A stretch of DNA of 64,000 nt from an uncultured Gammaproteobacteria bacterium (GCA_964424775.1 CAYRJZ010000001.1:204748-268747); one strand, 5' to 3'; counted from the stretch's first letter, positions 46,699-64,000 are shown. A program made the numbers and translations. The notes: a model not told the origin generated them from the letters alone.

Positions 46699-47657
46699 GA
46701 ACTCAATCCGTACCTTTGTATATTCTCCTGATGCTGTTCACCTGTTCGAGCGTACCTGTTGATGCCATTTTTATCGGTAATGTAGTATAAGTATTCTGTA
46801 TTAGCAGGATTGGCAGCTGCTTCGAGTGCTTTAATCCCTGGATTTGAGATAGGGCCTGGTGGAAGACCTGGTTGAAGATATGTATTATATGGTGATTTAA
46901 CAGATTGGTACTCAGCTAGTGTAACTGGTGTCCACCAATTTCCATTAATATTCCCTTTTGCGTACTGGATAGTTGCATCAATTTGGAGTGCCATATTTAT
47001 TTCAAGTCGGTTATACATAACTGATGCGATAAGTGGTCGATCTTCATCATGTCTTGCTTCACGTTCTATCATCGAGGCTAAGATGACAAGTTGTTCTTTA
47101 GGAAGTGCCCGAGTACTTTTTGAGATGCTCTTATATCTTTCCTCAAATGTACCTGTTAAGAGGTTGATAATTGTCTCAATTGTTGCATCACGCGGAATGA
47201 GGTAGGTGTCAGGGAAAAGATACCCTTCTTGAGCTATAAGACTTTCTCTCCATGATGGCTCAAAGGTTGGAATTTTTTCTTCAAGTATTTGAGCAACCTC
47301 TTCAGCTCTCTTCCCCTCAGGAATAGTTACCCAAATATCAAGACTTCCTTTCGTCATTGCTTCAGCAATTTGTTCAGCAGTCATAGAAGGCGAGAGTCGA
47401 AAATCTCCTGCTTGAATCTTTTTGTCATATCCCTTTTGACGCACCATGAGGAAAAAGACAATTGAGTCTTTTATAAGACCTTGTTCTTTCAAATTATTTG
47501 AAATCGCTCGTATTCCAGTCCCTGGTTCAATAACAAACATTTTTTGTGATTTGTCACGAGCATTCAAGGGGCTTAGACCATTGTTCCACCAGAGAAGACC
47601 AATGAACCCTATCAATACAAATATACCTAATAATATAAATAATTTTCTCATGAGCAC
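46695..47657 (-). CDS. mltG: endolytic murein transglycosylase MltG (YceG family)
   Basis: N-terminal TM, FVIEPGTGIRAISNNLKEQGLIKD...QAGDFRLSPSMTAEQI..., YceG-like domain. Classical linkage to alaS on the same strand. Confidence 0.8.
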   Translation of the reverse strand: MLMRKLFILLGIFVLIGFIGLLWWNNGLSPLNARDKSQKMFVIEPGTGIRAISNNLKEQGLIKDSIVFFLMVRQKGYDKKIQAGDFRLSPSMTAEQIAEAMTKGSLDIWVTIPEGKRAEEVAQILEEKIPTFEPSWRESLIAQEGYLFPDTYLIPRDATIETIINLLTGTFEERYKSISKSTRALPKEQLVILASMIEREARHDEDRPLIASVMYNRLEINMALQIDATIQYAKGNINGNWWTPVTLAEYQSVKSPYNTYLQPGLPPGPISNPGIKALEAAANPANTEYLYYITDKNGINRYARTGEQHQENIQRYGLSS

Positions 47658-48931
47658 TAATTATACAAGAAAAGTGGGAAATGATGAACTGAATCTTTTG
47701 CCTCACGTAAATTATAAATTGAGTTACTATAAAGCGTATAGAGTACTTCTCCCTTTCTTACTTTTTGCCCAATTTTTTTATTAAGATAAATTCCCGCTTT
47801 TTTTTCATCAGGAGCACCGAGTATTTTTGCCAATACTGTTGCATTTTTACTATGAATTTTTTTTACAGTACCATTCGTTTTTGCAATAATTTCGTGAGAA
47901 TATCTCCCAGGTTTCAAACGTTCACTTGAGACTTTTGGGTCTCCTCCTTGGGCTTTAATTATTTCCTTCATTTTTCCCCAAGCTTTTCCAGAAGAGAGAA
48001 GATGCCTTGCCCATTCATGTCCGCTACCGAAGTCTTTTTTTATTTTTTCCTGGAGCGTTTTTGATGCATCATCAAGGCAAAGGTCAAGAAGGGCTCCAGC
48101 TAAGTTAAGTGCGCGTTCTTCAAGATCATATGGTCTATATTCTTGTTGTTCAAGGACGAGAATTGATTCTCGGGTTTCAAGTATTGGACCGATTCCTCTT
48201 CCTGCTGGTTCATCTGTTTTATGGATGAGAACACGGATTTTAATATCAAATTTTTTTGCTAATTTTTCAAACTTTCCTTTGAGTATCTCGGCATCTCTTA
48301 GTCTATGCACCTTTACCATCTCACCATATGGGAGATCTATGACAACATGTGTTGATCCAAAAGCAATTTTCTTTGCCATGATAGAAACAAGAATCTTATC
48401 AAAGCTTTCAAAGAGAAGTGGCTCTTCAACTTTTATAATGACATCATCAGCTGGGGCAATGTTGAAACTTCCTCCCCAGACAATACATCCATTTGTTTTT
48501 TCAACTATCTTATATATCTCTTTCTCATCAAAATCCACTTTTGATAAAACTTCCATATCATCAGCAGTACCACCTGGAGTTGTAATTGCGCGGCTTGAGC
48601 TTTTGGGAATCTTAAAACCCGCAGCTGCAATAATGGGGACGACGATAAGTGTTGTACGCGTACCAGGTACACCTCCAATGGAGTGCTTGTCTGCAACAAT
48701 TCCCTTAAAGTGCAATTTTTGACCCGTTTCTACCATTGCTTTAGTGAGGTAGTAAATTTCTTGATCAGTAAATCCTTCAGAATATCCTGATGCTGCGAAA
48801 TATGTTGTCAGTACATCACCCAGTCGTTCATTTGCGATTTCATCCATGATCGCGTAGATTTCAGCATAGTTGAGTTTTTTCCCAACTAACTTTTTTTGTA
48901 TTGCTTTGAGAGCAAGGTTTTGTTTATCCAT
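47657..48931 (-). CDS. AMP/thymidine (pyrimidine-nucleoside) phosphorylase family protein (glycosyl transferase family 3 fold)
   Basis: ADKHSIGGVPGTRTTLIVVPIIAAAGFKIPKSSSRAITTPGGTADDMEVL and C-terminal PYNP domain. 424 aa. Confidence 0.75.
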   Translation of the reverse strand: MDKQNLALKAIQKKLVGKKLNYAEIYAIMDEIANERLGDVLTTYFAASGYSEGFTDQEIYYLTKAMVETGQKLHFKGIVADKHSIGGVPGTRTTLIVVPIIAAAGFKIPKSSSRAITTPGGTADDMEVLSKVDFDEKEIYKIVEKTNGCIVWGGSFNIAPADDVIIKVEEPLLFESFDKILVSIMAKKIAFGSTHVVIDLPYGEMVKVHRLRDAEILKGKFEKLAKKFDIKIRVLIHKTDEPAGRGIGPILETRESILVLEQQEYRPYDLEERALNLAGALLDLCLDDASKTLQEKIKKDFGSGHEWARHLLSSGKAWGKMKEIIKAQGGDPKVSSERLKPGRYSHEIIAKTNGTVKKIHSKNATVLAKILGAPDEKKAGIYLNKKIGQKVRKGEVLYTLYSNSIYNLREAKDSVHHFPLFLYN

Positions 48932-54244: not shown

Positions 54245-57200
54245 ATGCCAAAATCCAGTAACGATAATAAGTCAACAATAATCCGCCATAACTGGGGGAA
54301 ACAATATTCTTCTCTTCCACAGCTTGATCTTCTTGCTGTTCAAAAAGCTTCATATCAAAACTTCCTCGATGAACAAATCGGACAAGTACTCCAAGAAATT
54401 TCACCAATTGATGATTTTACCGGAAAGAACTGGAGTCTCTCTTTCAAAGAGTATAGATTAGGTCAACCAACTCTTACTCCTGATATCGCACTCGTTAAAG
54501 GTCTTACCTACGATGCGCCACTCTATGTAAAAGTAACCCTCACCAATCTTAAAACAAATACTACTCATGATGCTGAAGTTTTCTTAGGAGATATTCCTCA
54601 AATGACACAACAAGGAACATTTGTCGTCAATGGAATCGAAAGAGCTGTCGTAAGTCAGATTGTTCGAAGTCCTGGAGTTTTCTTTACAGCTACTCATGAT
54701 CCAGCTACTGGCCGTACTCTCTACTCAGCAGAAATAAGACCAACTCATGGATCATGGCTTGAGTTCTCAACAACTCGATATGGAACTATCACAGTGAAGA
54801 TTGATCGACGTAGAAAGTTCTTGGCCACAACATTTCTCAGAGCAATTGGAGTTTCAGCTAACGAATCTATTCTTGAAAAATTTGCTGATGTTGAAGAAGG
54901 AGAAAATGAGTCATTTATCCAAGCAACACTTCAAAAAGATGAAACAGGATCTGAGACAGAAGCTGTCATTGAGATTTTTAAGAAAATGCATCCTGGAGAG
55001 CCAATTGTTTATGACAAGGTTAAAGAAAACTTTGTCAATCTTTTCTTTAATAACAGACGATATGATCTTGGTGAAGTTGGTCGTTACAAATTAAATAAAA
55101 AATTAGCAGAAGTTCCAAATTTTTCAGGAACAGAAGAAAGAGTACTTACTCTTGATGACATTATTGGCACAATTAAATATCTTATCCTCCTTACTCAGGG
55201 GAAAGGAATGGTCGATGATATTGATTCTCTTGCAAACCGACGTATTCGAAGTGTTGGAGAACTCGTTTCTACAAACGCATTCCGTGTCGGTTGTCTTCGA
55301 CTTGAGAGATCTATTAAAGAGCGTATGAGTCTTATGCAGCCAGATATGCCTGTTGCAGTTGCTAACCTTATTAATGCTCGACCAATTATGGCTTCAATTA
55401 ATGAATTCTTCCGAACATCTCAGCTTTCAACTATTCTTGATCAAACCAACCCACTTTCTGAAATTGATAACTTAAATCGTCTTACTGTGATGGGAGCAGG
55501 TGGAATTTCACGTGAGCGTGCAGCCTTCTCTATTCGTGATATCAATGCGTCACAGTATGGTCGTATTGATCCTATCCGTTCTCCTGAAGGACCAAATATT
55601 GGACTTGTTACCTACATGGCGCTTTATTCTAGAGTAAACGATTATGGCTTTCTTGAAGCTCCATACCGGAAAGTTGTAAAAGAGCAAAAGGGTGGAAAGA
55701 CAGTTGTTCGACTCACTGATGAGATTGAATACATGTCAGCTGATGATGAGAGAGTGAAGTATATTACTCACGCTGGAATTAATATTGATGAAAATGGGGT
55801 TATTCTTGATGATCGTATTCCTGCACGATACAAGGGTGACTTTATTGAAGTTGACTCTGAGAGAATTGAATATATAGATGTCGTTCCACGACAGGTAGTT
55901 GGAACGAGTGCTTCACTTATTCCATTTGTTGCTCATGATGAAGCAAATCGTGCTCTCATGGGAACTCACATGCAATGTCAGGCAGTTCCACTTGTCAAAC
56001 CAGATAGTCCAACGGTTGGAACAGGCATGGAAGCTGCAGTTGCTGAAGTTATGGGGAGAGTTGTGAAAGCACCTTTTGACGGAACTGTAACTTTCGTTGA
56101 CGCAAATAAAGTTGTCCTTGAAGGAGAAAAGGGTGAGAAAGGATCATTTGCTATTACTTCATTCATGAGAACTTCACAGGCAACATCTTACACACAGCGG
56201 GCAGTAGTTGCTGAAGGACAAAAAGTAAAGAAAGGTGATCTTCTTATTGATGGCCCAGCTGCACAAAATGGAGAGCTCGCACTTGGACAAAATCTTCTTA
56301 TTGCATATGCGTCACTTGAAGGACTTGGGTATGAGGATGCTATCGTTATCTCAGATAGACTTGTAAAAGAGGACGTTCTTTCAAGTATCCACATTGAAAA
56401 GCATGAAGCAGCAGTTGTCGAAACAAAGCTGGGACCTGAAGAAATTACACCTGATATTCCAAATGTCAGTGAAGAGGAATTAGCTCATCTTGATCCTGAA
56501 GGAATAATCGTTGTTGGATCTGAAGTAGGACCAGGCGATATTCTAGTCGGAAAGATTGCACCAAAAGGCGAAACAGAATTAACAGCAGAAGAAAGACTTC
56601 TCCGCGCTATCTTTGGAGAACAGGCTCGAGAGGTTCGAGATACTTCACTTCGTATGCCTCATGGAGAGCGTGGAACTGTTATTAGTGTTCAGATTCTTGA
56701 TCGTAAGAAAGGTGATGAACTTGAACCAGGAACATTGAAGAAGATAATTGTAGAAGTTGCGCAGTTCCGACATGTTGTTGTAGGAGACAAACTCGCAGGA
56801 CGTCATGGTAACAAAGGAATTATTTCACGAATTCTCCCAGCAGCAGATATGCCTTACCTTGAGGATGGAACACCGGTTGATATTATCATCTCACCAATGT
56901 CTATTCTTGCTCGTATGAATCTCGGACAGATTCTTGAAGCTCATCTTGGATTTGCAGCTCAAAAGCTCGATATGAAGATCGGTGCTCCAGTATTTGAACA
57001 TATCCCAGAAGAAAAGATTACCTCACTTCTTCAAGAAGCAGGACTTCCAGTTAATGGAAAAGTTCGTCTTTATGATGGAAAAACAGGAAATGCATTTGAA
57101 AATAATGTAGTTGTCGGAATTGAGTACATGATGAAACTTATTCACATGGTTGAGGATAAGACTCATGCTCGATCAACTGGACCATACTCTCTTGTTACCC

Positions 57201-57661
57201 AGCAACCTCTTGGAGGAAAAGCTCAAATGGGAGGTCAGAGACTTGGAGAAATGGAAGTGTGGGCACTAGAAGCACATCGAGCACGACATATTCTTCAGGA
57301 AATGTTAACAATTAAAGCTGACGATGTTATCGGACGTGCAAAAGCATTTGAGGCAATTGTGAAGGGAACTGATATCCCAACACCAAAAGTTCCTGAATCA
57401 TTCAAAGTTCTTATTAAAGAACTTCAATCTCTTGGACTTAATGTTGTTCCAGTTGGAGCTACAGTGTATAATGAAGTTTCCGAGAATAAAGATGAGTTTG
57501 TTTCTGAAGATGTCAAACAGGAAGTTGAAGCATTAAAAGAGACACTTGAGGCAACTGAGGTTGCTGAGGAAGCACCAGAAGTTGGAGTAGAAGTCGCTGA
57601 AGCTGGAGCAGAAGTCGAGCCAAGTGATGCAATGCTTGCGGAGGGAGCAGAAAATGAATAA
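54245..57661 (+). CDS. rpoB: DNA-directed RNA polymerase subunit beta
   Basis: 1138 aa with canonical rpoB blocks (GTFVVNGIERAVVSQ, NRLTVMGAGGIS, HGNKGIISRILP...). Confidence 0.97.
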   Translation: MPKSSNDNKSTIIRHNWGKQYSSLPQLDLLAVQKASYQNFLDEQIGQVLQEISPIDDFTGKNWSLSFKEYRLGQPTLTPDIALVKGLTYDAPLYVKVTLTNLKTNTTHDAEVFLGDIPQMTQQGTFVVNGIERAVVSQIVRSPGVFFTATHDPATGRTLYSAEIRPTHGSWLEFSTTRYGTITVKIDRRRKFLATTFLRAIGVSANESILEKFADVEEGENESFIQATLQKDETGSETEAVIEIFKKMHPGEPIVYDKVKENFVNLFFNNRRYDLGEVGRYKLNKKLAEVPNFSGTEERVLTLDDIIGTIKYLILLTQGKGMVDDIDSLANRRIRSVGELVSTNAFRVGCLRLERSIKERMSLMQPDMPVAVANLINARPIMASINEFFRTSQLSTILDQTNPLSEIDNLNRLTVMGAGGISRERAAFSIRDINASQYGRIDPIRSPEGPNIGLVTYMALYSRVNDYGFLEAPYRKVVKEQKGGKTVVRLTDEIEYMSADDERVKYITHAGINIDENGVILDDRIPARYKGDFIEVDSERIEYIDVVPRQVVGTSASLIPFVAHDEANRALMGTHMQCQAVPLVKPDSPTVGTGMEAAVAEVMGRVVKAPFDGTVTFVDANKVVLEGEKGEKGSFAITSFMRTSQATSYTQRAVVAEGQKVKKGDLLIDGPAAQNGELALGQNLLIAYASLEGLGYEDAIVISDRLVKEDVLSSIHIEKHEAAVVETKLGPEEITPDIPNVSEEELAHLDPEGIIVVGSEVGPGDILVGKIAPKGETELTAEERLLRAIFGEQAREVRDTSLRMPHGERGTVISVQILDRKKGDELEPGTLKKIIVEVAQFRHVVVGDKLAGRHGNKGIISRILPAADMPYLEDGTPVDIIISPMSILARMNLGQILEAHLGFAAQKLDMKIGAPVFEHIPEEKITSLLQEAGLPVNGKVRLYDGKTGNAFENNVVVGIEYMMKLIHMVEDKTHARSTGPYSLVTQQPLGGKAQMGGQRLGEMEVWALEAHRARHILQEMLTIKADDVIGRAKAFEAIVKGTDIPTPKVPESFKVLIKELQSLGLNVVPVGATVYNEVSENKDEFVSEDVKQEVEALKETLEATEVAEEAPEVGVEVAEAGAEVEPSDAMLAEGAENE

Positions 57662-60600
57662 TAACGGCAAAAAAGCAGTAAAAGATTTAACAATTTTAGA
57701 TTTCAAATCATTAAAGATTCTTCTTGCGAATAATGAAGATATTGCAAATTGGTCTTATGGAGAAGTAACAAAACCTGAGACTATCAATTATCGTACACTT
57801 CGACCAGAAAAAGATGGACTTTTTGATGAAAGAATTTTTGGTCCTACAAAAGACTGGGAATGTTATTGTGGTAAATATAAGAGAATTCGATATCGAGGAA
57901 TTATTTGTGATAAATGTGGTGTTGAAGTAACTCTTTCCCGAGTTCGCCGTGAGAGACTTGGTCATATTACGCTTTCTGCACCAGTTGCACACGTTTGGTA
58001 TTTTAAAGGAGCATCATCTGCACTTGCATCACTTCTTGATATTCCTCAAAAGAACTTAGAGTCTGTTATTTATTACGCATCATACCTCGTCACAGAAGTT
58101 GATGAGCAAAAGAAGAAAGAAGCAATTGATGCTCTTATGCAAAATATTGAGAATCGAAAGCAGGCACTTAAAGACAAGATGCAGGATGAAGAATCAAAGA
58201 TTACAGACGATGCAAAAGACAAGAAGGATGAAACAAAAACAGCAAAAGGTGAGCAAAAAGAGCTTATCTCACAAGAATTAGAGCTCGCAAAGAGACAGCG
58301 ATTAACACGTCTTCATGAAACATTTGAGAATGAATCAAAGAAGATTGATGAAATCGCTGATACCCTCGCACGACTTCTGAAGAGTCTTCGAGTGGGAAGT
58401 GTGCTTTCTGAAGATGAATATTACAAGATTCTTGAGTATGAAATCCCAGTTTTCTTCACGATGAAGACTGGATCTGAAGCCCTCTTGCAGCTTATTAAAG
58501 GTCTTGATCTTTCTAAAGTTATTGCAGAACTTCGAACAGAAGCTGAGAAATCAACTGGTCAACGGTATCTTAAAGTTGTGAAGAGACTTCGACTTATTGA
58601 GAACATGCGAAAAGCTGGTGCGACACCAACAGCTATGATCATGACAACTCTTCCTGTTATCCCACCAGATCTTCGACCTATGGTACAGCTTGCCGGTGGA
58701 AGATTTGCAACATCAGATCTTAATGATCTTTATCGACGTGTTATTAACCGAAATAATCGTTTGAAGCACCTTATTGCTCTAGGAGCGCCAGAAATTATCT
58801 TGAGAAATGAGAAGAGAATGCTTCAGGAATCAGTTGACTCTCTTATTGATGCATCACAGAGAGGAAGTCAGGCTATCGCATCTCCTCTTCGCTCACTTTC
58901 AGACATGCTTCGAGGTAAGCAGGGACGATTTAGACAGAATCTTCTTGGAAAACGTGTTGATTACTCAGGACGATCAGTTATCGTTGTTGGACCAGATCTT
59001 AAGTTAACACAGTGTGGACTTCCAAAAGAAATGGCACTTGAGATGTTTAAGCCATTTGTTCTTCGTGAAGTAATTGTTCGTGGACTTGCTACTAACATTA
59101 AGTCAGCAAAGAGATATATTGAAAAAAGACCACCAGAAGTATTTGATATTCTTGAAGAAATTACAAAGAATCATCCAGTTCTTCTTAATCGTGCTCCTAC
59201 ACTTCATAAGTTAGGTATTCAGGCTTTCTATCCTGTTCTTATTGAAGGTTCAGCTATTCAACTCCATCCTTGTGTATGTGCAGGTTATAACGCTGACTTT
59301 GACGGAGATCAGATGGCTGTTCACATCCCACTTTCACAAAAAGCTCAGGAAGAAGCAGTTAGTCTTATGATGCCAAGTCGAAATCTCTTAAAACCAGCTG
59401 ATGGATCTCCAATTACACTTCCAAATAAAGAAATGGCGCTTGGAATCTTCTTCTTAACTTCAGTTAATGAAGATTTGAGAAAGAGTGAAGAAGAGATGTC
59501 ATACTTCGAAAACGAAGTTGCTGCAATCATGGCATATGATATGGGTAAAGTCGCTCTTCGAGAACCAATTAAAGTTCGTGTTGGTGCAACAGGTGATCGA
59601 GAGCTCATGGAGACAACTGTAGGGAGAATTCGATTTAATGAACTTCTTCCAGGTGTCTTTGGATATATTAATGAATCAGTAAACGCTGCAGGAATCAAAA
59701 AGCTTATTACTACAGCTATGAAACTCATCTCTCAAGATGAGGTGACAGCACTTATTGACAGTATTAAGAGTCTTGGATTTCACGGCGCAACAATTTCTGG
59801 TCTTTCAGTTGGTGTATTTGATAACTACATGCATCCAGACAAAGATAAGATGATTGCTGAAGCAGAGAAGAAAGTTGCGGCAATTGATGATGAGTATCAA
59901 AGAGGACTTATCACTCTTGATGAGAAAAAGAGACTTTCAAATGATGTCTGGCTTAAAGCTACAGATGAAATTGCAAAACTGACATGGAATAACTTAAAGC
60001 CTTCAAATCCTATTAAAATCACCATTGATTCAGGAGGATCACGTGCTGGAGTAGAACAGCTTAAGCAGCTTTCAGCTATCCGAGGACTTATTGTTGATCC
60101 ACTTGGAAAGATCGTTGAACTTCCAGTTAAGTCTAACTTCCGAGAAGGTCTTTCAATCTTTGAATACGTTGCATCCGCTCGAGGATCACGAAAAGGACTT
60201 ACAGACTCAGCGCTTAAGACTGCAAACGCTGGATACCTGACACGACGTCTCGTTGACGTATCACACGAAGTGATTGTTATGGTCGATGATTGTGGAACAA
60301 CAGAGGGTCTTACTATTAGTGTTGATGATCCAGAAAGAACAGCACCATTTGCAGATCGCATCTTAGGACGAATTCTCCTCTCAGATGCAGTTACAAAGTC
60401 TCGAAAAGCTATCTTGAAAGCAGGAGAAGAATTGAGTGAAGAAAATGTGAAGCTTCTTGTTGATAATGAGGTTACTGAAGTTGATGTTCGATCACCGATG
60501 GGCTGCAAACTCGCATACGGAATTTGTGCGAACTGTTATGGTTGGGACTTTTCAACGAAAAAGAAAGTATCTCTTGGTGTCCCAGTTGGAGTTATCGCTG

Positions 60601-61481
60601 CACAAAGTATTGGAGAGCCAGGAACTCAGCTTACAATGCGTGTTCGCCACTTCGGTGGAGTTGTTATGAGTGACGTGACACAGGGTCTCCCTCGTGTTGA
60701 AGAACTCTTTGAGATGAGAACACCAAAGAACTTAGCTCCAATTTCTGAAATTGCTGGAAAAGTAAAAATTGAGACAACAGATGAAGGATATAGAGTCCAA
60801 GTTCGAAATACACGAATCAAACCAATTGAAGTTCAGGAATACTTTGTTCCACTTGCTGCAACACTTGCAGTGAAAGATGGAGATGATATCTCAGCAGGAA
60901 CACCACTTGCTCAGGGTTATCTTGATCCAAAAGAGGTTTTGAAGATCGGTGGAATTGGACGTGCACAAAATTACCTTATCACTGAGGTTCAGAAAGTATA
61001 CGAATCTCAAGGTATTGCAATTAACGACAAGCACTTTGAAGTAATTGCACGCAAGATGTCAGATAAGATCATCGTTGAGACTGTTGGTGATACCCCACTT
61101 ATTCCAGGCGACTTTGTAACAAGAGCACGATTTGAAGAAATGAATGCTGAAATCCTCTCAGAAGGCGGAGTCCCAGCAACTGGTCGACAAGTGATCCTTG
61201 GAATTACCAAAGCAGCTCTTTTCTCAGATAGTTGGCTCTCAGCAGCATCATTCCAAGAGACAACAAAAGTTCTGACAGAAGCTGCGCTTGAAGGTCGAGA
61301 AGACAAGCTTATCGGACTTAAGGAGAATGTTATTATCGGACGACTTATTCCTGTTGAAGGAAAAGAACTTGCAGATGCACGTGAGGCTTCTCAGGATATA
61401 ACTGAGGCAGCTGATGCAGAAGGAGTTGCTGAGACTATTATACCTGCTGATTCAGCTGAGGTTTCTGAAGTTACTGCCTAA
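57654..61481 (+). CDS. rpoC: DNA-directed RNA polymerase subunit beta'
   Basis: MNNNGKK start at 57654 overlaps the rpoB stop by 8 nt. Zinc-binding CYCGKYKRIRYRGIICDKCGVEV, NADFDGDQMAVH catalytic motif. 1275 aa from this start. Confidence 0.97.
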   Translation: MNNNGKKAVKDLTILDFKSLKILLANNEDIANWSYGEVTKPETINYRTLRPEKDGLFDERIFGPTKDWECYCGKYKRIRYRGIICDKCGVEVTLSRVRRERLGHITLSAPVAHVWYFKGASSALASLLDIPQKNLESVIYYASYLVTEVDEQKKKEAIDALMQNIENRKQALKDKMQDEESKITDDAKDKKDETKTAKGEQKELISQELELAKRQRLTRLHETFENESKKIDEIADTLARLLKSLRVGSVLSEDEYYKILEYEIPVFFTMKTGSEALLQLIKGLDLSKVIAELRTEAEKSTGQRYLKVVKRLRLIENMRKAGATPTAMIMTTLPVIPPDLRPMVQLAGGRFATSDLNDLYRRVINRNNRLKHLIALGAPEIILRNEKRMLQESVDSLIDASQRGSQAIASPLRSLSDMLRGKQGRFRQNLLGKRVDYSGRSVIVVGPDLKLTQCGLPKEMALEMFKPFVLREVIVRGLATNIKSAKRYIEKRPPEVFDILEEITKNHPVLLNRAPTLHKLGIQAFYPVLIEGSAIQLHPCVCAGYNADFDGDQMAVHIPLSQKAQEEAVSLMMPSRNLLKPADGSPITLPNKEMALGIFFLTSVNEDLRKSEEEMSYFENEVAAIMAYDMGKVALREPIKVRVGATGDRELMETTVGRIRFNELLPGVFGYINESVNAAGIKKLITTAMKLISQDEVTALIDSIKSLGFHGATISGLSVGVFDNYMHPDKDKMIAEAEKKVAAIDDEYQRGLITLDEKKRLSNDVWLKATDEIAKLTWNNLKPSNPIKITIDSGGSRAGVEQLKQLSAIRGLIVDPLGKIVELPVKSNFREGLSIFEYVASARGSRKGLTDSALKTANAGYLTRRLVDVSHEVIVMVDDCGTTEGLTISVDDPERTAPFADRILGRILLSDAVTKSRKAILKAGEELSEENVKLLVDNEVTEVDVRSPMGCKLAYGICANCYGWDFSTKKKVSLGVPVGVIAAQSIGEPGTQLTMRVRHFGGVVMSDVTQGLPRVEELFEMRTPKNLAPISEIAGKVKIETTDEGYRVQVRNTRIKPIEVQEYFVPLAATLAVKDGDDISAGTPLAQGYLDPKEVLKIGGIGRAQNYLITEVQKVYESQGIAINDKHFEVIARKMSDKIIVETVGDTPLIPGDFVTRARFEEMNAEILSEGGVPATGRQVILGITKAALFSDSWLSAASFQETTKVLTEAALEGREDKLIGLKENVIIGRLIPVEGKELADAREASQDITEAADAEGVAETIIPADSAEVSEVTA

Positions 61482-61557
61482 TTACTTCAATTTTTTACCC
61501 TCAAGGTATTTCCCTCCTGAAGTGTGTATGCTATAATAGCCAGAGGAAAATTTACGT

Positions 61558-61974
61558 ATGCCAACATTATCACAACTTGCACGAAAAGGACGATCATTTA
61601 AAACGAAAAAGGTTAAAGCAACCGGTCTTCGTCGATTTTTTAATGCAAAAGATCGTGAATATAAGGAGTTAGCAGCACCTCAAAAAAGAGGCGTTGTTAC
61701 CTTAGTCAAGACAATGACTCCTAAAAAGCCTAATTCAGCTCTTCGAAAGGTCGCTCGTGTGAAGTTATCAAATAAAGTTGAAGTGACAGCATATATTCAA
61801 GGAGTCGGTCATTCTCTCTCAGAACACGGAATCGTTCTTGTTCGAGGAGGTCGTGTAAAAGATTTACCAGGAGTTAAGTATCATATCGTTCGCGGTAAAT
61901 TTGATCTTCAGGGAGTTGAAGGACGAAAGACTTCACGAAGTAAGTATGGGGCTAAAATGCCACAAGCTAAGTAA
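61558..61974 (+). CDS. rpsL: 30S ribosomal protein S12
   Basis: [12 protein letters not shown]...[18 protein letters not shown]... Confidence 0.97.
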
Positions 61975-61979
61975 ATAAT

Positions 61980-62453
61980 ATGAGACACGCTAAAATCCAA
62001 AAAAGACAAACATCACCTGATAAACTCCATAACAACGTTATGGTAGCAAAGCTTATTAACTACATCATGCAAGATGGTAAAAAGACCATTGCTGAGAAGT
62101 GTGTATACGGCTCATTTGACGTTCTTAAAAATAACAATCAGGAGCCACTTGATATCTTCGAGAGAGCTATCCAAAATGTTGGACCAAAAGTTGAAGTAAA
62201 AGCACGACGTATCGGAGGAGCTAATTTCCAAGTCCCTACAGAAGTTCGACATGACAGACGTATGTCACTTGCTCTCAGATGGATAGTTGAAGCAGCTCGA
62301 AAGAGATCAAATAAAGAGTATCATTCATTTGCAGAAAAGCTCGCTGCAGAATTTAATGCTGCTGCAAATAATGAAGGTGAAGCAATCAGAAAACGTGACG
62401 TCACTCTCAAACAAGCTGAAGCTAACAAAGCTTTTGCACATTTCCGCTGGTAA
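61980..62453 (+). CDS. rpsG: 30S ribosomal protein S7
   Basis: Canonical S7. Follows rpsL by 5 nt. Confidence 0.95.
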   Translation: MRHAKIQKRQTSPDKLHNNVMVAKLINYIMQDGKKTIAEKCVYGSFDVLKNNNQEPLDIFERAIQNVGPKVEVKARRIGGANFQVPTEVRHDRRMSLALRWIVEAARKRSNKEYHSFAEKLAAEFNAAANNEGEAIRKRDVTLKQAEANKAFAHFRW

Positions 62454-62519
62454 ACCCTCTTCTTCTCATCTTATAGTTTTCAAATTTATCTCAAATAGTG
62501 TAAAATACTGGTTCTCCAA

Positions 62520-63075
62520 AGCTTGAGCGGATTTCGTTCGAGTCAGGGGGATTTTTGGGGTCAGATGGTGACTCCTGTCGTTTTACGCAAGGAGAATCCT
62601 GCGTGGCATCTCAGAGAACGCTCGTGATCGTCAAGCCGGACGCGTTTTCACACTTTCGGAGAATCAGGTACCTGCTCTGTGAAGATGGATTCAAGGTCAT
62701 CAAGTACAACGTCGCCCGGTTGTCGAGAGAACAGGCCGAGGCGCTGTACGCCGAGCATAAGGGGAAGGACTTCTTTGAAGGCATGATTGCCTTCATGATG
62801 GAAGGTCCTGTCTTCCTGATGGTTCTGGAGGGCGAGGAGGCCATCCGCAAGACCCGCGAGCGAATCGGGAACACGTATCCTGAGAAGGCGGCGGAGGGGA
62901 CGATCCGTAAACTGTTCGGTACGCCGAACAGCCAACCGACCCGCAATGCGGTTCATGCCTCAGACAGCGAGGTTTCGGCACTGCGTGAGATCGCGATCTT
63001 CTACCCAGAGCTCGTCTAGGGCTCATCTGACCTTGCTCCTCCTCCCTGCCACATGGTAGGGGGGAGGACAGTCAC
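62520..63075. other. high-GC (~58%) island in a ~37% GC genome
   Basis: Abrupt compositional shift visible by eye (gcggatttcgttcgagtcaggggg ... ggtaggggggaggacag). Many long shadow ORFs on the opposite strand typical of GC-rich DNA. Returns to AT-rich flanks on both sides. Confidence 0.8.
62603..63019 (+). CDS. ndk: nucleoside diphosphate kinase, encoded within the GC-rich island
   Basis: SD AAGGAG at 62589-94, then GTG at 62603 (the track uses TTG at 62555 in the same frame). (M)ASQRTLVIVKPDAF...YAEHKGKDFFEGMIAFMMEGPVFLMVLEGEEAIRKTRERIGNTYP...NAVHASDSEVSALREIAIFF, an NDK fold with the catalytic His in the HxSDS motif. Confidence 0.75.
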   Translation: MASQRTLVIVKPDAFSHFRRIRYLLCEDGFKVIKYNVARLSREQAEALYAEHKGKDFFEGMIAFMMEGPVFLMVLEGEEAIRKTRERIGNTYPEKAAEGTIRKLFGTPNSQPTRNAVHASDSEVSALREIAIFYPELV

Positions 63076-63084
63076 ACGAAAGAT

Positions 63085-63744
63085 TTATTCGATAATAACA
63101 CTCAGGATCGTATCTCCAATTTCTATTTTTTCAACAACGTCCATTCCCTCAGTAACAATACCGAAATTAGTGTATTGATTGTTCAGGTGAGAAGATTCTT
63201 CTTTCGTAATAAAGAATTGTGAGTCATTTGAGATTTGGATATTACCACCTCGAGCTACACCAAGTGAGCCTTTTACAAACGGTTTATCATTTATCTCTGT
63301 TTGGATGTTTCCTCCTCCTGTGCCATTTCCTTCTGGATCTCCTCCTTGTATGACCCATCCTTCCACCCGATGAAAGGTTAAGTTGTTATAAAATTCTTCT
63401 TTTGATTTTTTAATAAAGTTAGCGACTGTATACGGAGCATCATCACCAAAAAGCTGTAAGACTATTTTGCCTTTATTTGTTTCAATAGTCGCAGTTGCTG
63501 AGGCTGTTTTAAATTTTTCTAAAGTAGATCTATTGACAACTTGAACTGACTGTTCCTGTTGTTGTCCTTGGCTTTGTCCACGAGTTGGGACGAATGTAAT
63601 TTGATCAGGGATTTGAGATATTGAGACTTGTCCTTTTGGAGCAGTATTAAGACCGAGGGTTCCTGCCTGGGTTATATAGAAAAGGACACCAAAGATAAGG
63701 ATGATAACAAGAAAGATGGTGATCTGGAGCTTATTCATATCCAC
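63085..63744 (-). CDS. cyclophilin-type peptidyl-prolyl cis-trans isomerase with N-terminal membrane anchor
   Basis: KGKIVLQLFGDDAPYTVANFIKKSKEEFYNNLTFHRVEGWVIQGGDPEGNGTGGG. Confidence 0.85.
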   Translation of the reverse strand: MDMNKLQITIFLVIILIFGVLFYITQAGTLGLNTAPKGQVSISQIPDQITFVPTRGQSQGQQQEQSVQVVNRSTLEKFKTASATATIETNKGKIVLQLFGDDAPYTVANFIKKSKEEFYNNLTFHRVEGWVIQGGDPEGNGTGGGNIQTEINDKPFVKGSLGVARGGNIQISNDSQFFITKEESSHLNNQYTNFGIVTEGMDVVEKIEIGDTILSVIIE

Positions 63745-63831
63745 TATTGTAACAATTTTTCTTGATTTAACAAGATAAAAATAGAGTAATTTTTTGCCTT
63801 AGGAGTCCCAATCAGGTACAATACGGAGGCT

Positions 63832-64000
63832 ATGAATCAATCCCACATCAGAAATTTTGCCATTATTGCACATATCGATCACGGGAAATCAACGTTATCA
63901 GATAGACTTTTAGAAATAACGCATACGATTTCTAAGGAAAAGCTTCAAGAACAGTTCTTGGATCAGAATCCTATTAGTCGTGAGCGTGGCATTACGATCA
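63832..64000 (+). CDS. lepA: elongation factor 4 (LepA), N-terminal part, continues past the window
   Basis: [56 protein letters not shown]. Preceded by TTGCCT-17-TACAAT and a GGAGG SD. Confidence 0.85.

Follow-up and report, generated by a model that had tools for sequence, protein, structure and literature searches.

We analyzed a stretch of 64,000 nucleotides from contig CAYRJZ010000001.1 (the window), deposited as part of an uncultured Gammaproteobacteria genome. In it, a GC-rich gene for a nucleoside diphosphate kinase (NDK), ndk, lies between rpsG, which encodes ribosomal protein S7, and a convergent cyclophilin gene. The gene order in the window is rpsL, rpsG, ndk, the cyclophilin gene, and then the start of a lepA-like GTPase gene. 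An initial annotation made from the sequence alone had read the segment as a recently acquired single-gene island; in our comparisons, the same unit occupies the same site in several relatives. The features of the locus, with GC3 denoting GC content at third codon positions and L081 the closest relative found, are as follows.

61980..62453, plus strand: rpsG (ribosomal protein S7), the upstream host flank; Pfam Ribosomal_S7 178 bits, GC3 0.28, 98% identity to the L081 protein
62454..62512, plus strand: AT-rich spacer, 29% GC, with a sigma-70-like promoter candidate from a promoter scan
62513..62602, plus strand: putative 5′ leader, 51% GC, with three predicted hairpins; fold energy −39.3 kcal/mol, z = −3.3
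62603..63019, plus strand: ndk, 138 amino acids, GTG start, GC 0.57, GC3 0.74; Pfam NDK PF00334 138.6 bits
63037..63068, plus strand: GC-rich 14-bp hairpin 3′ of ndk, no U-tract; −29.9 kcal/mol, z = −4.6
63085..63744, minus strand: convergent cyclophilin-type peptidyl-prolyl isomerase ("ppiB") with an N-terminal membrane anchor; Pfam Pro_isomerase 129 bits, GC3 0.29

Composition and elements of the ndk unit

A maximal-segment calculation places the GC-rich segment at 62521–63078, with 0.568 GC against a mean of 0.385 for the 64-kb window, in agreement with the island of about 560 bp first noted at 62520–63075. GC content in 200-nt intervals is 0.50–0.61 across 62500–63099 and 0.35–0.46 in the flanks. 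A composition scan confirmed the outlier: in 300-nt intervals over the whole 64 kb (mean 0.385 GC, standard deviation 0.033 outside the segment), all values more than three standard deviations above the mean fall at 62501–62851, with a peak of 0.587 (z = 6.2 versus the rest), and there is no other outlier in the 64 kb. The GC-rich single-gene segment is real and well beyond chance. Its bounds are sharp, as first described, but the GC-rich zone begins about 67 nt past the rpsG stop, and the 59 nt in between have 29% GC. By part, GC content is 0.29 in the promoter spacer, 0.51 in the leader, 0.57 in the coding sequence, and 0.63 in the 3′ untranslated region (UTR). The zone matches the presumed transcript, from its predicted start to the 3′ hairpin and including the noncoding parts, and the ends of the flanking rpsG and cyclophilin genes show no GC rise.

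The codon usage of ndk is indeed unlike that of the host, with a GC3 of 0.74 versus 0.19–0.33 in the other real open reading frames (ORFs) of the window. This anomaly is confined to third positions, GC at first (0.58) and second (0.39) positions being host-like. Among Leu codons, CTG accounts for 60% in ndk and 5% in host genes; among Ala codons, GCC and GCG together account for 86% and 12%, respectively. The gene thus relies on the rarest codons of the host. An overlapping antisense gene was considered as the cause of the high GC3 and rejected, as every antisense frame of every orthologue contains stops (6–11 in L089).

The gene is intact and has its own start signals, as first stated: the frame opens with GTG at 62603 and ends with a stop at 63017–63019, and an AAGGAG Shine–Dalgarno sequence at 62589–62594 lies 8 nt 5′ of the GTG. 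Its product scores 138.6 bits against PF00334 (cut-off 27, E = 1.6e-40), with residues 4–136 of 138 covered, and aligns over its full length to solved NDK structures (best E = 1e-29 to 1e-31). The catalytic His118 lies inside the motif NAVHASD, and K11, Y49, R85, T91, R102, N115, S120, and E129 all occur, spaced as expected except for a three-residue insertion. We take the roles of these residues to be those of K16, Y56, R92, T98, R109, N119, H122, S124, and E133 in Dictyostelium numbering. The active-site residues are invariant across four aligned orthologues except for E129, which is Asp in L089. As judged from sequence, the protein is a member of a known family with a complete active site and predicted phosphotransfer activity; that it is functional is supported by purifying selection, with a ratio of nonsynonymous to synonymous divergence (dN/dS) of 0.14. 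The enzyme would move the γ-phosphate of ATP to nucleoside diphosphates via phospho-His118, and an organism that salvages nucleosides could thereby make all nucleoside and deoxynucleoside triphosphates. Elsewhere in the window (47657–48931, minus strand) lies a homologue of pyrimidine-nucleoside phosphorylase with three Pfam domains, which fits a nucleoside-salvage lifestyle where an NDK is useful.

Upstream of the gene, the promoter scan finds TTCAAA (62479–84), a 16-nt spacer, and TAAAAT (62501–06). The motif TAGTGTAAAATACTG at 62496–62510 is kept across orthologous loci, and its core, TAGTGTAAAAT, which contains the −10 candidate, is common to the window, L081, L082, and L083 (one mismatch in L081). 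A recognizable variant, TAGTATAATAC, is found in L002; the site is a putative promoter. The predicted leader hairpins lie at about 62511–62552, 62557–62575, and 62576–62608, and the last encloses the AAGGAG. Pairing in the second hairpin is preserved in L081 and L083 through G–U and A–U changes. The leader of the L081 orthologue also folds strongly (z = −4.2), and that of the AT-rich L089 copy is unstructured (z = +0.6). The ndk leader could be regulatory; an Rfam scan of the leader and the 3′ hairpin gave chance-level matches only, far under gathering scores.

The GC-rich stem–loop that had been noted at the 3′ end next to the ppiB stop is likewise present. Its arms are 63037–63051 and 63054–63068, and 16 nt separate its end from the cyclophilin stop codon. 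L081–L086 have the same 5′ arm, CCTCCTCCCTGCCA, and pairing is maintained in L083 and L002 by one- and two-sided G–U/A–U and C–G/U–A changes. The predicted energy in the window is −29.9 kcal/mol on the plus strand and −20.9 on the minus strand, and in all GC-rich versions the ndk strand gives the more stable fold, by 3–10 kcal/mol; the hairpin therefore appears to be part of the ndk transcript. No T-run follows it in the window, where a consensus terminator scan made no call, and the orthologous hairpin of L089 does have a T-run. We regard it as a putative terminator or mRNA-stabilizing element. The hairpin arm and the promoter-like motif each occur once in the window, and a repeated genomic element was rejected. 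Together, the promoter-like site, structured leader, Shine–Dalgarno sequence and GTG, NDK, and 3′ hairpin would form a self-contained transcription unit.

The unit, its site, and its host clade

In L081 (Logan SRR27712898), whose proteins are 91% (cyclophilin), 98% (S7), 100% (S12), and 83% (NDK) identical to those of the window, the unit lies at the same site. It is also present in L082–L086, five assemblies from different samples (cyclophilin 72–73%, S7 85–86%, NDK 61% identical); the protein cluster of this lineage has 17 members. In L089 (ENA ERZ15186127), rpsG is followed by ndk, a hairpin, and the cyclophilin gene; its NDK is 46–48% identical, depending on the alignment. In L002, an NDK of only 28–37% identity is framed by a promoter-like motif and a hairpin as in the window. 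Units with matching junctions occur down to 57% cyclophilin identity. At least seven assemblies, made independently from different samples, contain the unit, which is present in at least four lineages besides that of the window. In an alignment of the window, L081, L083, and L082, the motif in the AT-rich spacer, a leader hairpin (GGGGTCA...TGACTCC), the Shine–Dalgarno sequence, and the 5′ arm of the 3′ hairpin are conserved. The assemblies with the ndk arrangement are the following.

Logan: SRR27712898, SRR12404947, SRR5165162
ENA: ERZ27275103, ERZ27275233, ERZ15186127
JGI: 3300007469
GenBank: CAZHKZ010000004

Two features of the protein agree with this positional evidence. A three-residue GTPNxQP insertion before the NAVHASD motif is restricted, among 146 NDKs compared, to the window, L081, L082/L083, and L089/P0001. 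The NDK tree joins the window and L081 with L083, followed by L089 and L002, in agreement with the S12+S7 and cyclophilin trees. The initial annotation had allowed that the NDK might instead group with low-GC relatives, which would imply local compositional drift; in effect, this is the grouping we find, since its nearest relatives are positional orthologues in AT-rich Levyibacteria-like genomes. The unit has also been lost, on the most economical reading of a comparison between L089 and L001: their cyclophilins are 87% identical, and the 576 nt of the ndk unit are cleanly replaced by 29 nt in L001.

Two further details of these loci were recorded. The ndk calls of L082–L086 vary from 149 to 198 amino acids, with an insertion of about 75 nt beyond the site of the start codon in the window, and their start assignment is uncertain. 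L002 has an 81-amino-acid ORF without a Pfam match (L002:10590–10835) between the promoter-like motif and its divergent ndk.

Among public sequences, the flanking S7 and cyclophilin proteins are most closely related to those of metagenome-assembled genomes labeled Levyibacteriota or Levybacteria, and the "Gammaproteobacteria" label that some third-party assemblies of relatives carry is contradicted by the S12+S7 tree. In relatives with readable downstream sequence (L001–L009, L081–L086, L164, and L165 were checked), fusA never follows rpsG; the convergent cyclophilin gene usually comes next, ahead of lepA and greA, and the cyclophilin gene adjoins lepA in all relatives examined. In relatives that have no ndk, fusA is also missing after rpsG: 15 bp separate rpsG from the cyclophilin gene in L001, and 43 bp do so in L006. 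Elongation factor G (EF-G) is encoded after rpsG in the outgroup candidate-phylum loci L016 and L010. Because fusA is missing whether ndk is present or not, the broken str operon is an ancestral trait of the clade, independent of ndk and not caused by it. The initial annotation was right that fusA is absent after rpsG, but the idea that ndk took its position, or that the operon is broken specifically here, does not hold for a clade that lacks fusA there throughout. It had also suggested a search for fusA and tuf elsewhere; a scan of the ten largest other ORFs in the window turned up neither EF-G nor EF-Tu.

The space between rpsG and the cyclophilin gene is occupied differently in nearly every relative (L003–L009, L087, L088, L164, L165, and the contig of P0123), by nothing, ndk, glnA, argG–argH, GNAT-like, toxin–antitoxin-like, or unknown ORFs. 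Pfam identifies glnA, argG–argH, an inosine–uridine nucleoside hydrolase together with a hydrolase, and P4-cII/M78-peptidase/HigB genes, besides unknown ORFs, and further NUDIX-like, GIY-YIG-like, GNAT-like, and HicB-like ORFs were judged by sequence alone. In L087 (phage-like, HigB) and L088 (nucleoside hydrolase), the cargo was seen beside the cyclophilin gene, with rpsG beyond the fetched sequence. All cargo other than ndk is host-like in GC (glnA, argG–argH, the nucleoside hydrolase, the phage-like and toxin genes, and a 253-amino-acid ORF). The slot is a gene-turnover hotspot, at which no integrase or recombinase was seen in relatives. The window has no mobility genes at the locus, where the neighbors are rpoC, rpsL, rpsG, the cyclophilin gene, and lepA, and no tRNA gene within 55000–64000. 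The only direct repeat at ndk, 19 nt at 79% identity, pairs the 3′ end of rpsG (62426–62444) with the left edge of the GC-rich zone (62517–62535); it is kept in L081 but not in L083 and is probably due to chance, and a target-site duplication was accordingly rejected. An integron cassette, in which a lone gene is joined to an imperfect inverted repeat on its 3′ side, was rejected on inspection only: a promoter-like site belongs to the unit itself, its neighbors are core genes without an integrase, and reading of the sequence showed no GTTRRRY core sites at its boundaries.

Other occupants of the slot also drew attention. Between the ndk hairpin and the cyclophilin gene, L081 carries, in the interval L081:774–1740, an extra 253-amino-acid ORF of host-like GC and without a Pfam match, and the same interval holds a 93-nt tRNA-Trp(CCA) call. 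A 16-nt direct repeat, TCTTATCTACAGACAA, has one copy inside this tRNA and one about 90 nt downstream. All three are absent from the window; their arrangement suggests either a small integrated element or an odd tRNA insert. In L165, about 450 nt of noncoding sequence between rpsG and argH (L165:6805–7250, minus strand) include a promoter-like TTGACA...TATGAT and a terminator-like hairpin with a T-run, and this stretch may be a riboswitch or T-box-type leader.

Origin and persistence of the GC-rich composition

Between the window and L081, ndk differs at a proportion of 0.47 of synonymous sites (pS) and 0.10 of nonsynonymous sites (pN), with the dN/dS of 0.14 given above, indicating that it is under purifying selection. 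Host pS values for the same pair are 0.24 for rpsL, 0.28 for rpoC (1,099 codons), 0.33 for rpsG, and 0.58 for the cyclophilin gene. The value for ndk lies within the range of its flanks, and ndk has thus diverged together with them. As a protein, NDK is fast-evolving, with a pN 22 times that of host rpoC, rpsL, and rpsG.

The GC3 of the orthologues spans a wide range (window 0.74, L081 0.68, L083 0.50, L002 0.62, L089 0.28), and the flanking host genes have 0.13–0.31 in all of them. Pfam NDK scores are 138.6 for the window, 131 for L081, 122.8 for L083, 106 for L089, and 98 for L002. That the copies richest in GC lie closest to the family consensus, and the AT-rich L089 copy further from it, points to an ancestor that was GC-rich, or not AT-adapted, and decayed later, as would be expected after an old transfer.

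We estimated the course of neutral decay roughly, on the back of an envelope, from rpoC synonymous third positions. By this estimate, host change per lineage since the window and L081 split amounts to about 0.14 from GC to AT and 0.05 from AT to GC, so that a GC excess shrinks about 0.8-fold per lineage. For rpoC, the split from L083 is older than that from L081 by 3-fold in dS (1.00 versus 0.35) and 11-fold in dN (0.052 versus 0.0046). Under neutral decay, even the lenient end of this rough calculation would then put the ancestral GC3 needed for the excess in the window above 1. To the accuracy of this estimate, simple neutral decay does not fit the ndk GC3 of 0.74.

A source for the gene was sought in about 15 billion proteins. 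An exhaustive HMMER search of 1.84 billion cluster representatives gave 62% identity for the L084 orthologue and at best 53% outside the clade. In a profile search of 5.8 billion proteins, two clusters belong to the NDK subfamily (254 and 231 bits), and the next match scores 151 bits. Named matches, at 44–50% identity, are scattered over Brevinematia, Selenomonadaceae, Desulfurobacteriaceae, and others. No donor above 53% identity was found outside the clade by a word-indexed search of 5.8 billion proteins or by the exhaustive HMMER and profile searches, and the high-GC donor clade that a protein search was expected to reveal was not identified. A metagenome contig scan with the NDK alignment yielded at most 48% identity; viral contigs contained neither an NDK relative nor a copy of the 3′ hairpin, and a phage carrier was rejected on these grounds. 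Exact look-ups of the window NDK, S7, and cyclophilin matched no indexed contig, and a literature search on NDK in candidate-phylum bacteria turned up nothing relevant. As no donor is identifiable, the case for a foreign origin is built on the composition of the gene, its narrow distribution, and the trend in Pfam scores.

The reading we favor, with confidence moderately above even, is an old, essentially vertically inherited ndk unit that came from a GC-richer source into a variable slot of one Levyibacteria-like subclade in the Candidate Phyla Radiation and whose compositional decay has been slowed or opposed. The unit would already have been in the common ancestor of the window, L081, L082–L086, L089, and probably L002 lineages, most likely having arrived by an old transfer. 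Mostly vertical inheritance under purifying selection would have followed, with loss in some lineages such as L001. GC-richness would be a legacy of the source, gone in L089 (GC3 0.28) and lasting beyond neutral decay elsewhere (0.50–0.74). Since the GC content outlasts what neutral decay allows, some force would slow or oppose decay over the whole transcript. That the GC-richness of the whole transcript, UTRs included, is actively maintained over the long term in these AT-rich reduced genomes, by selection on the RNA (structure, stability, or deliberately rare codons) or GC-biased conversion at a slot prone to recombination, is a more tentative proposal, which we put forward as a possibility well short of even. 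If true, it would be a natural case of one vertically inherited protein gene held far from the compositional equilibrium of its genome.

Several observations weigh against the favored reading. The donor lineage is not identifiable, the best match outside the clade being 53% among the 1.84 billion representatives, and the L002 NDK, at 28–37% identity, may be a replacement rather than an orthologue. Synonymous sites of ndk between the window and L081 change 1.7 times faster than those of rpoC, rpsL, and rpsG, although slower than those of the cyclophilin gene, and 34 of the 38 synonymous changes are between GC and AT, which fits ongoing decay (from a GC3 of about 0.85) and not constraint. Polarized substitutions number 10 from GC to AT and 7 from AT to GC, a count of low power with a saturated outgroup. 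Between L082 and L083, only 3 of 105 ndk synonymous sites differ, versus 275 of 1,870 in eight host genes (pS 0.147), a 5-fold slower rate (P = 6e-5); the leader has diverged by about 2%, nonsynonymous sites by 0.9%, and synonymous sites by 2.9%. This low divergence would reflect either silent-site constraint or recent recombination of the whole unit. Constraint would suit an ndk that is native or very old and whose GC content was generated or maintained in place by selection on the transcript (structure, stability, rare codons) or by GC-biased gene conversion at a slot prone to recombination. Besides the L082–L083 data, in which ndk synonymous and leader sites are both about 5-fold less diverged than host synonymous sites, this explanation draws on the extent of the GC-rich zone, which runs from the predicted start to the hairpin with its noncoding parts (0.51 and 0.63, next to a spacer of 0.29), on the rough estimate that rejects neutral decay from an ancestor predating L083, on gene turnover at the slot, and on the fast evolution of the protein (pN 22-fold above the three host genes). 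We nevertheless consider it unlikely: the AT-rich L089 copy is further from the NDK consensus, which argues that the GC-rich state is older; the ends of rpsG and the cyclophilin gene show no GC rise; other slot cargo is host-like in GC; and window–L081 synonymous sites are unconstrained relative to rpoC. To our knowledge, gene-conversion effects on GC3 reported for bacteria are far below a step from 0.25 to 0.74. Recombination, in turn, would mean that a resident ndk was repeatedly replaced, through homologous recombination inside the unit, by GC-rich alleles of an unsampled GC-rich donor or relative carrying the same subfamily, leaving lineages at different stages of decay. The boundaries of the GC tract coincide with conserved elements able to serve as recombination anchors, the L082/L083 unit has diverged less than its flanks in every class of site, as after recent exchange, the window/L081 data fit decay from a GC3 of about 0.85 at their split, and the L002 NDK is very divergent within the same promoter and hairpin frame. 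The donor, however, is absent from the 15 billion proteins and from the scanned metagenome and viral contigs, the clade's sampled hosts have 36–46% GC, and the NDK and host trees agree, so that we judge repeated replacement to be less probable still.

Recent horizontal acquisition from a high-GC donor at a former fusA site, as originally proposed, accounts for the strong compositional contrast, the sharp boundaries, and the single gene with its own signals. It is very improbable in light of the relatives: units with the same junctions are found in L081, L082–L086, L089, and, by position, L002, down to 57% cyclophilin identity and with NDKs 17–72% divergent, and synonymous divergence of ndk from L081 (pS 0.47) is as large as that of host genes. 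Nor does the locus offer an identifiable donor, mobility genes, a tRNA, or convincing flanking repeats, and fusA is absent in all clade members, those without ndk included. A chimeric assembly, in which a fragment of a GC-rich organism was misjoined into the contig, had been raised as a less likely alternative and would explain the abrupt GC change only. Both junctions lie inside a syntenic intergenic slot, the fragment would be exactly one complete transcription unit, and the arrangement was independently assembled at least seven times, in the Logan, ENA, JGI, and GenBank assemblies listed above; we give this explanation almost no weight. By composition, ndk looks foreign to its host, but its arrival is not recent, its link to fusA is not causal, and the contig is not chimeric.

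Significance and comparison with known systems

A GC island in a candidate-phylum genome does not by itself point to recent transfer or to contamination; here, that reading was overturned once relatives were compared. There is also a practical consequence. The GC-rich ndk of L081 (L081:1867–2280, minus strand) was left uncalled by the gene caller in the Logan assembly, and the window NDK is missing from the 5.8-billion-protein collection, which includes the neighboring cyclophilin (P0121). Gene callers trained on an AT-rich genome may systematically overlook GC-rich genes such as ndk, and metabolic reconstructions may then record its absence in error, a point to weigh in any claim about how these bacteria handle nucleotides. 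The orthologues, whose GC3 spans 0.28–0.74 in similar hosts (GC3 about 0.25–0.30), amount to a small, clean natural experiment on how fast foreign composition is lost. The same set could test whether selection at synonymous sites or biased conversion holds one gene off genomic equilibrium.

The enzyme itself is an ordinary one; what is unusual is the long persistence of its GC3 and the spread of GC3 between lineages. Like other members of the NDK family (PF00334; Myxococcus xanthus 1NHK/2NCK and E. coli 2HUR), it is a single domain of about 140 amino acids that aligns over its full length (E = 1e-25 to 1e-31), with the catalytic His in NxxH[GA]SD and all classical nucleotide- and phosphate-binding residues present. 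It differs in being at most 53% identical to any NDK beyond its own small clade, in the three-residue GTPNxQP insertion common only to its positional orthologues, and in its fast evolution, with 83% identity to the L081 protein where S7 has 98% and S12 100%.

In most bacteria, rpsL and rpsG follow rpoB and rpoC, and the window retains this part of the str operon (rpsL-rpsG-fusA-tuf). It departs from it downstream, where rpsG in this clade is followed by the variable slot, the convergent cyclophilin gene, and lepA, with no fusA there. The slot resembles the variable accessory slots found between conserved genes in that its content differs among relatives. Unlike them, it has no integrase or recombinase, and its cargo besides ndk is host-like in composition.

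The closest parallel for the composition is amelioration, reportedly described by Lawrence and Ochman as the decay of acquired, atypical genes toward the composition of their host. The ndk unit shares with such genes a GC3 and codon usage far from those of the host, sharp bounds, a patchy distribution, and, in L089, a host-like copy as after full decay. It differs from them in lacking mobility genes, a tRNA, repeats, and a known donor, and in being present in close relatives. Amelioration of acquired genes has been treated more recently in PMC8461475. By our rough estimate, the GC excess of ndk departs from that course in having outlasted a divergence over which neutral decay should have erased it.

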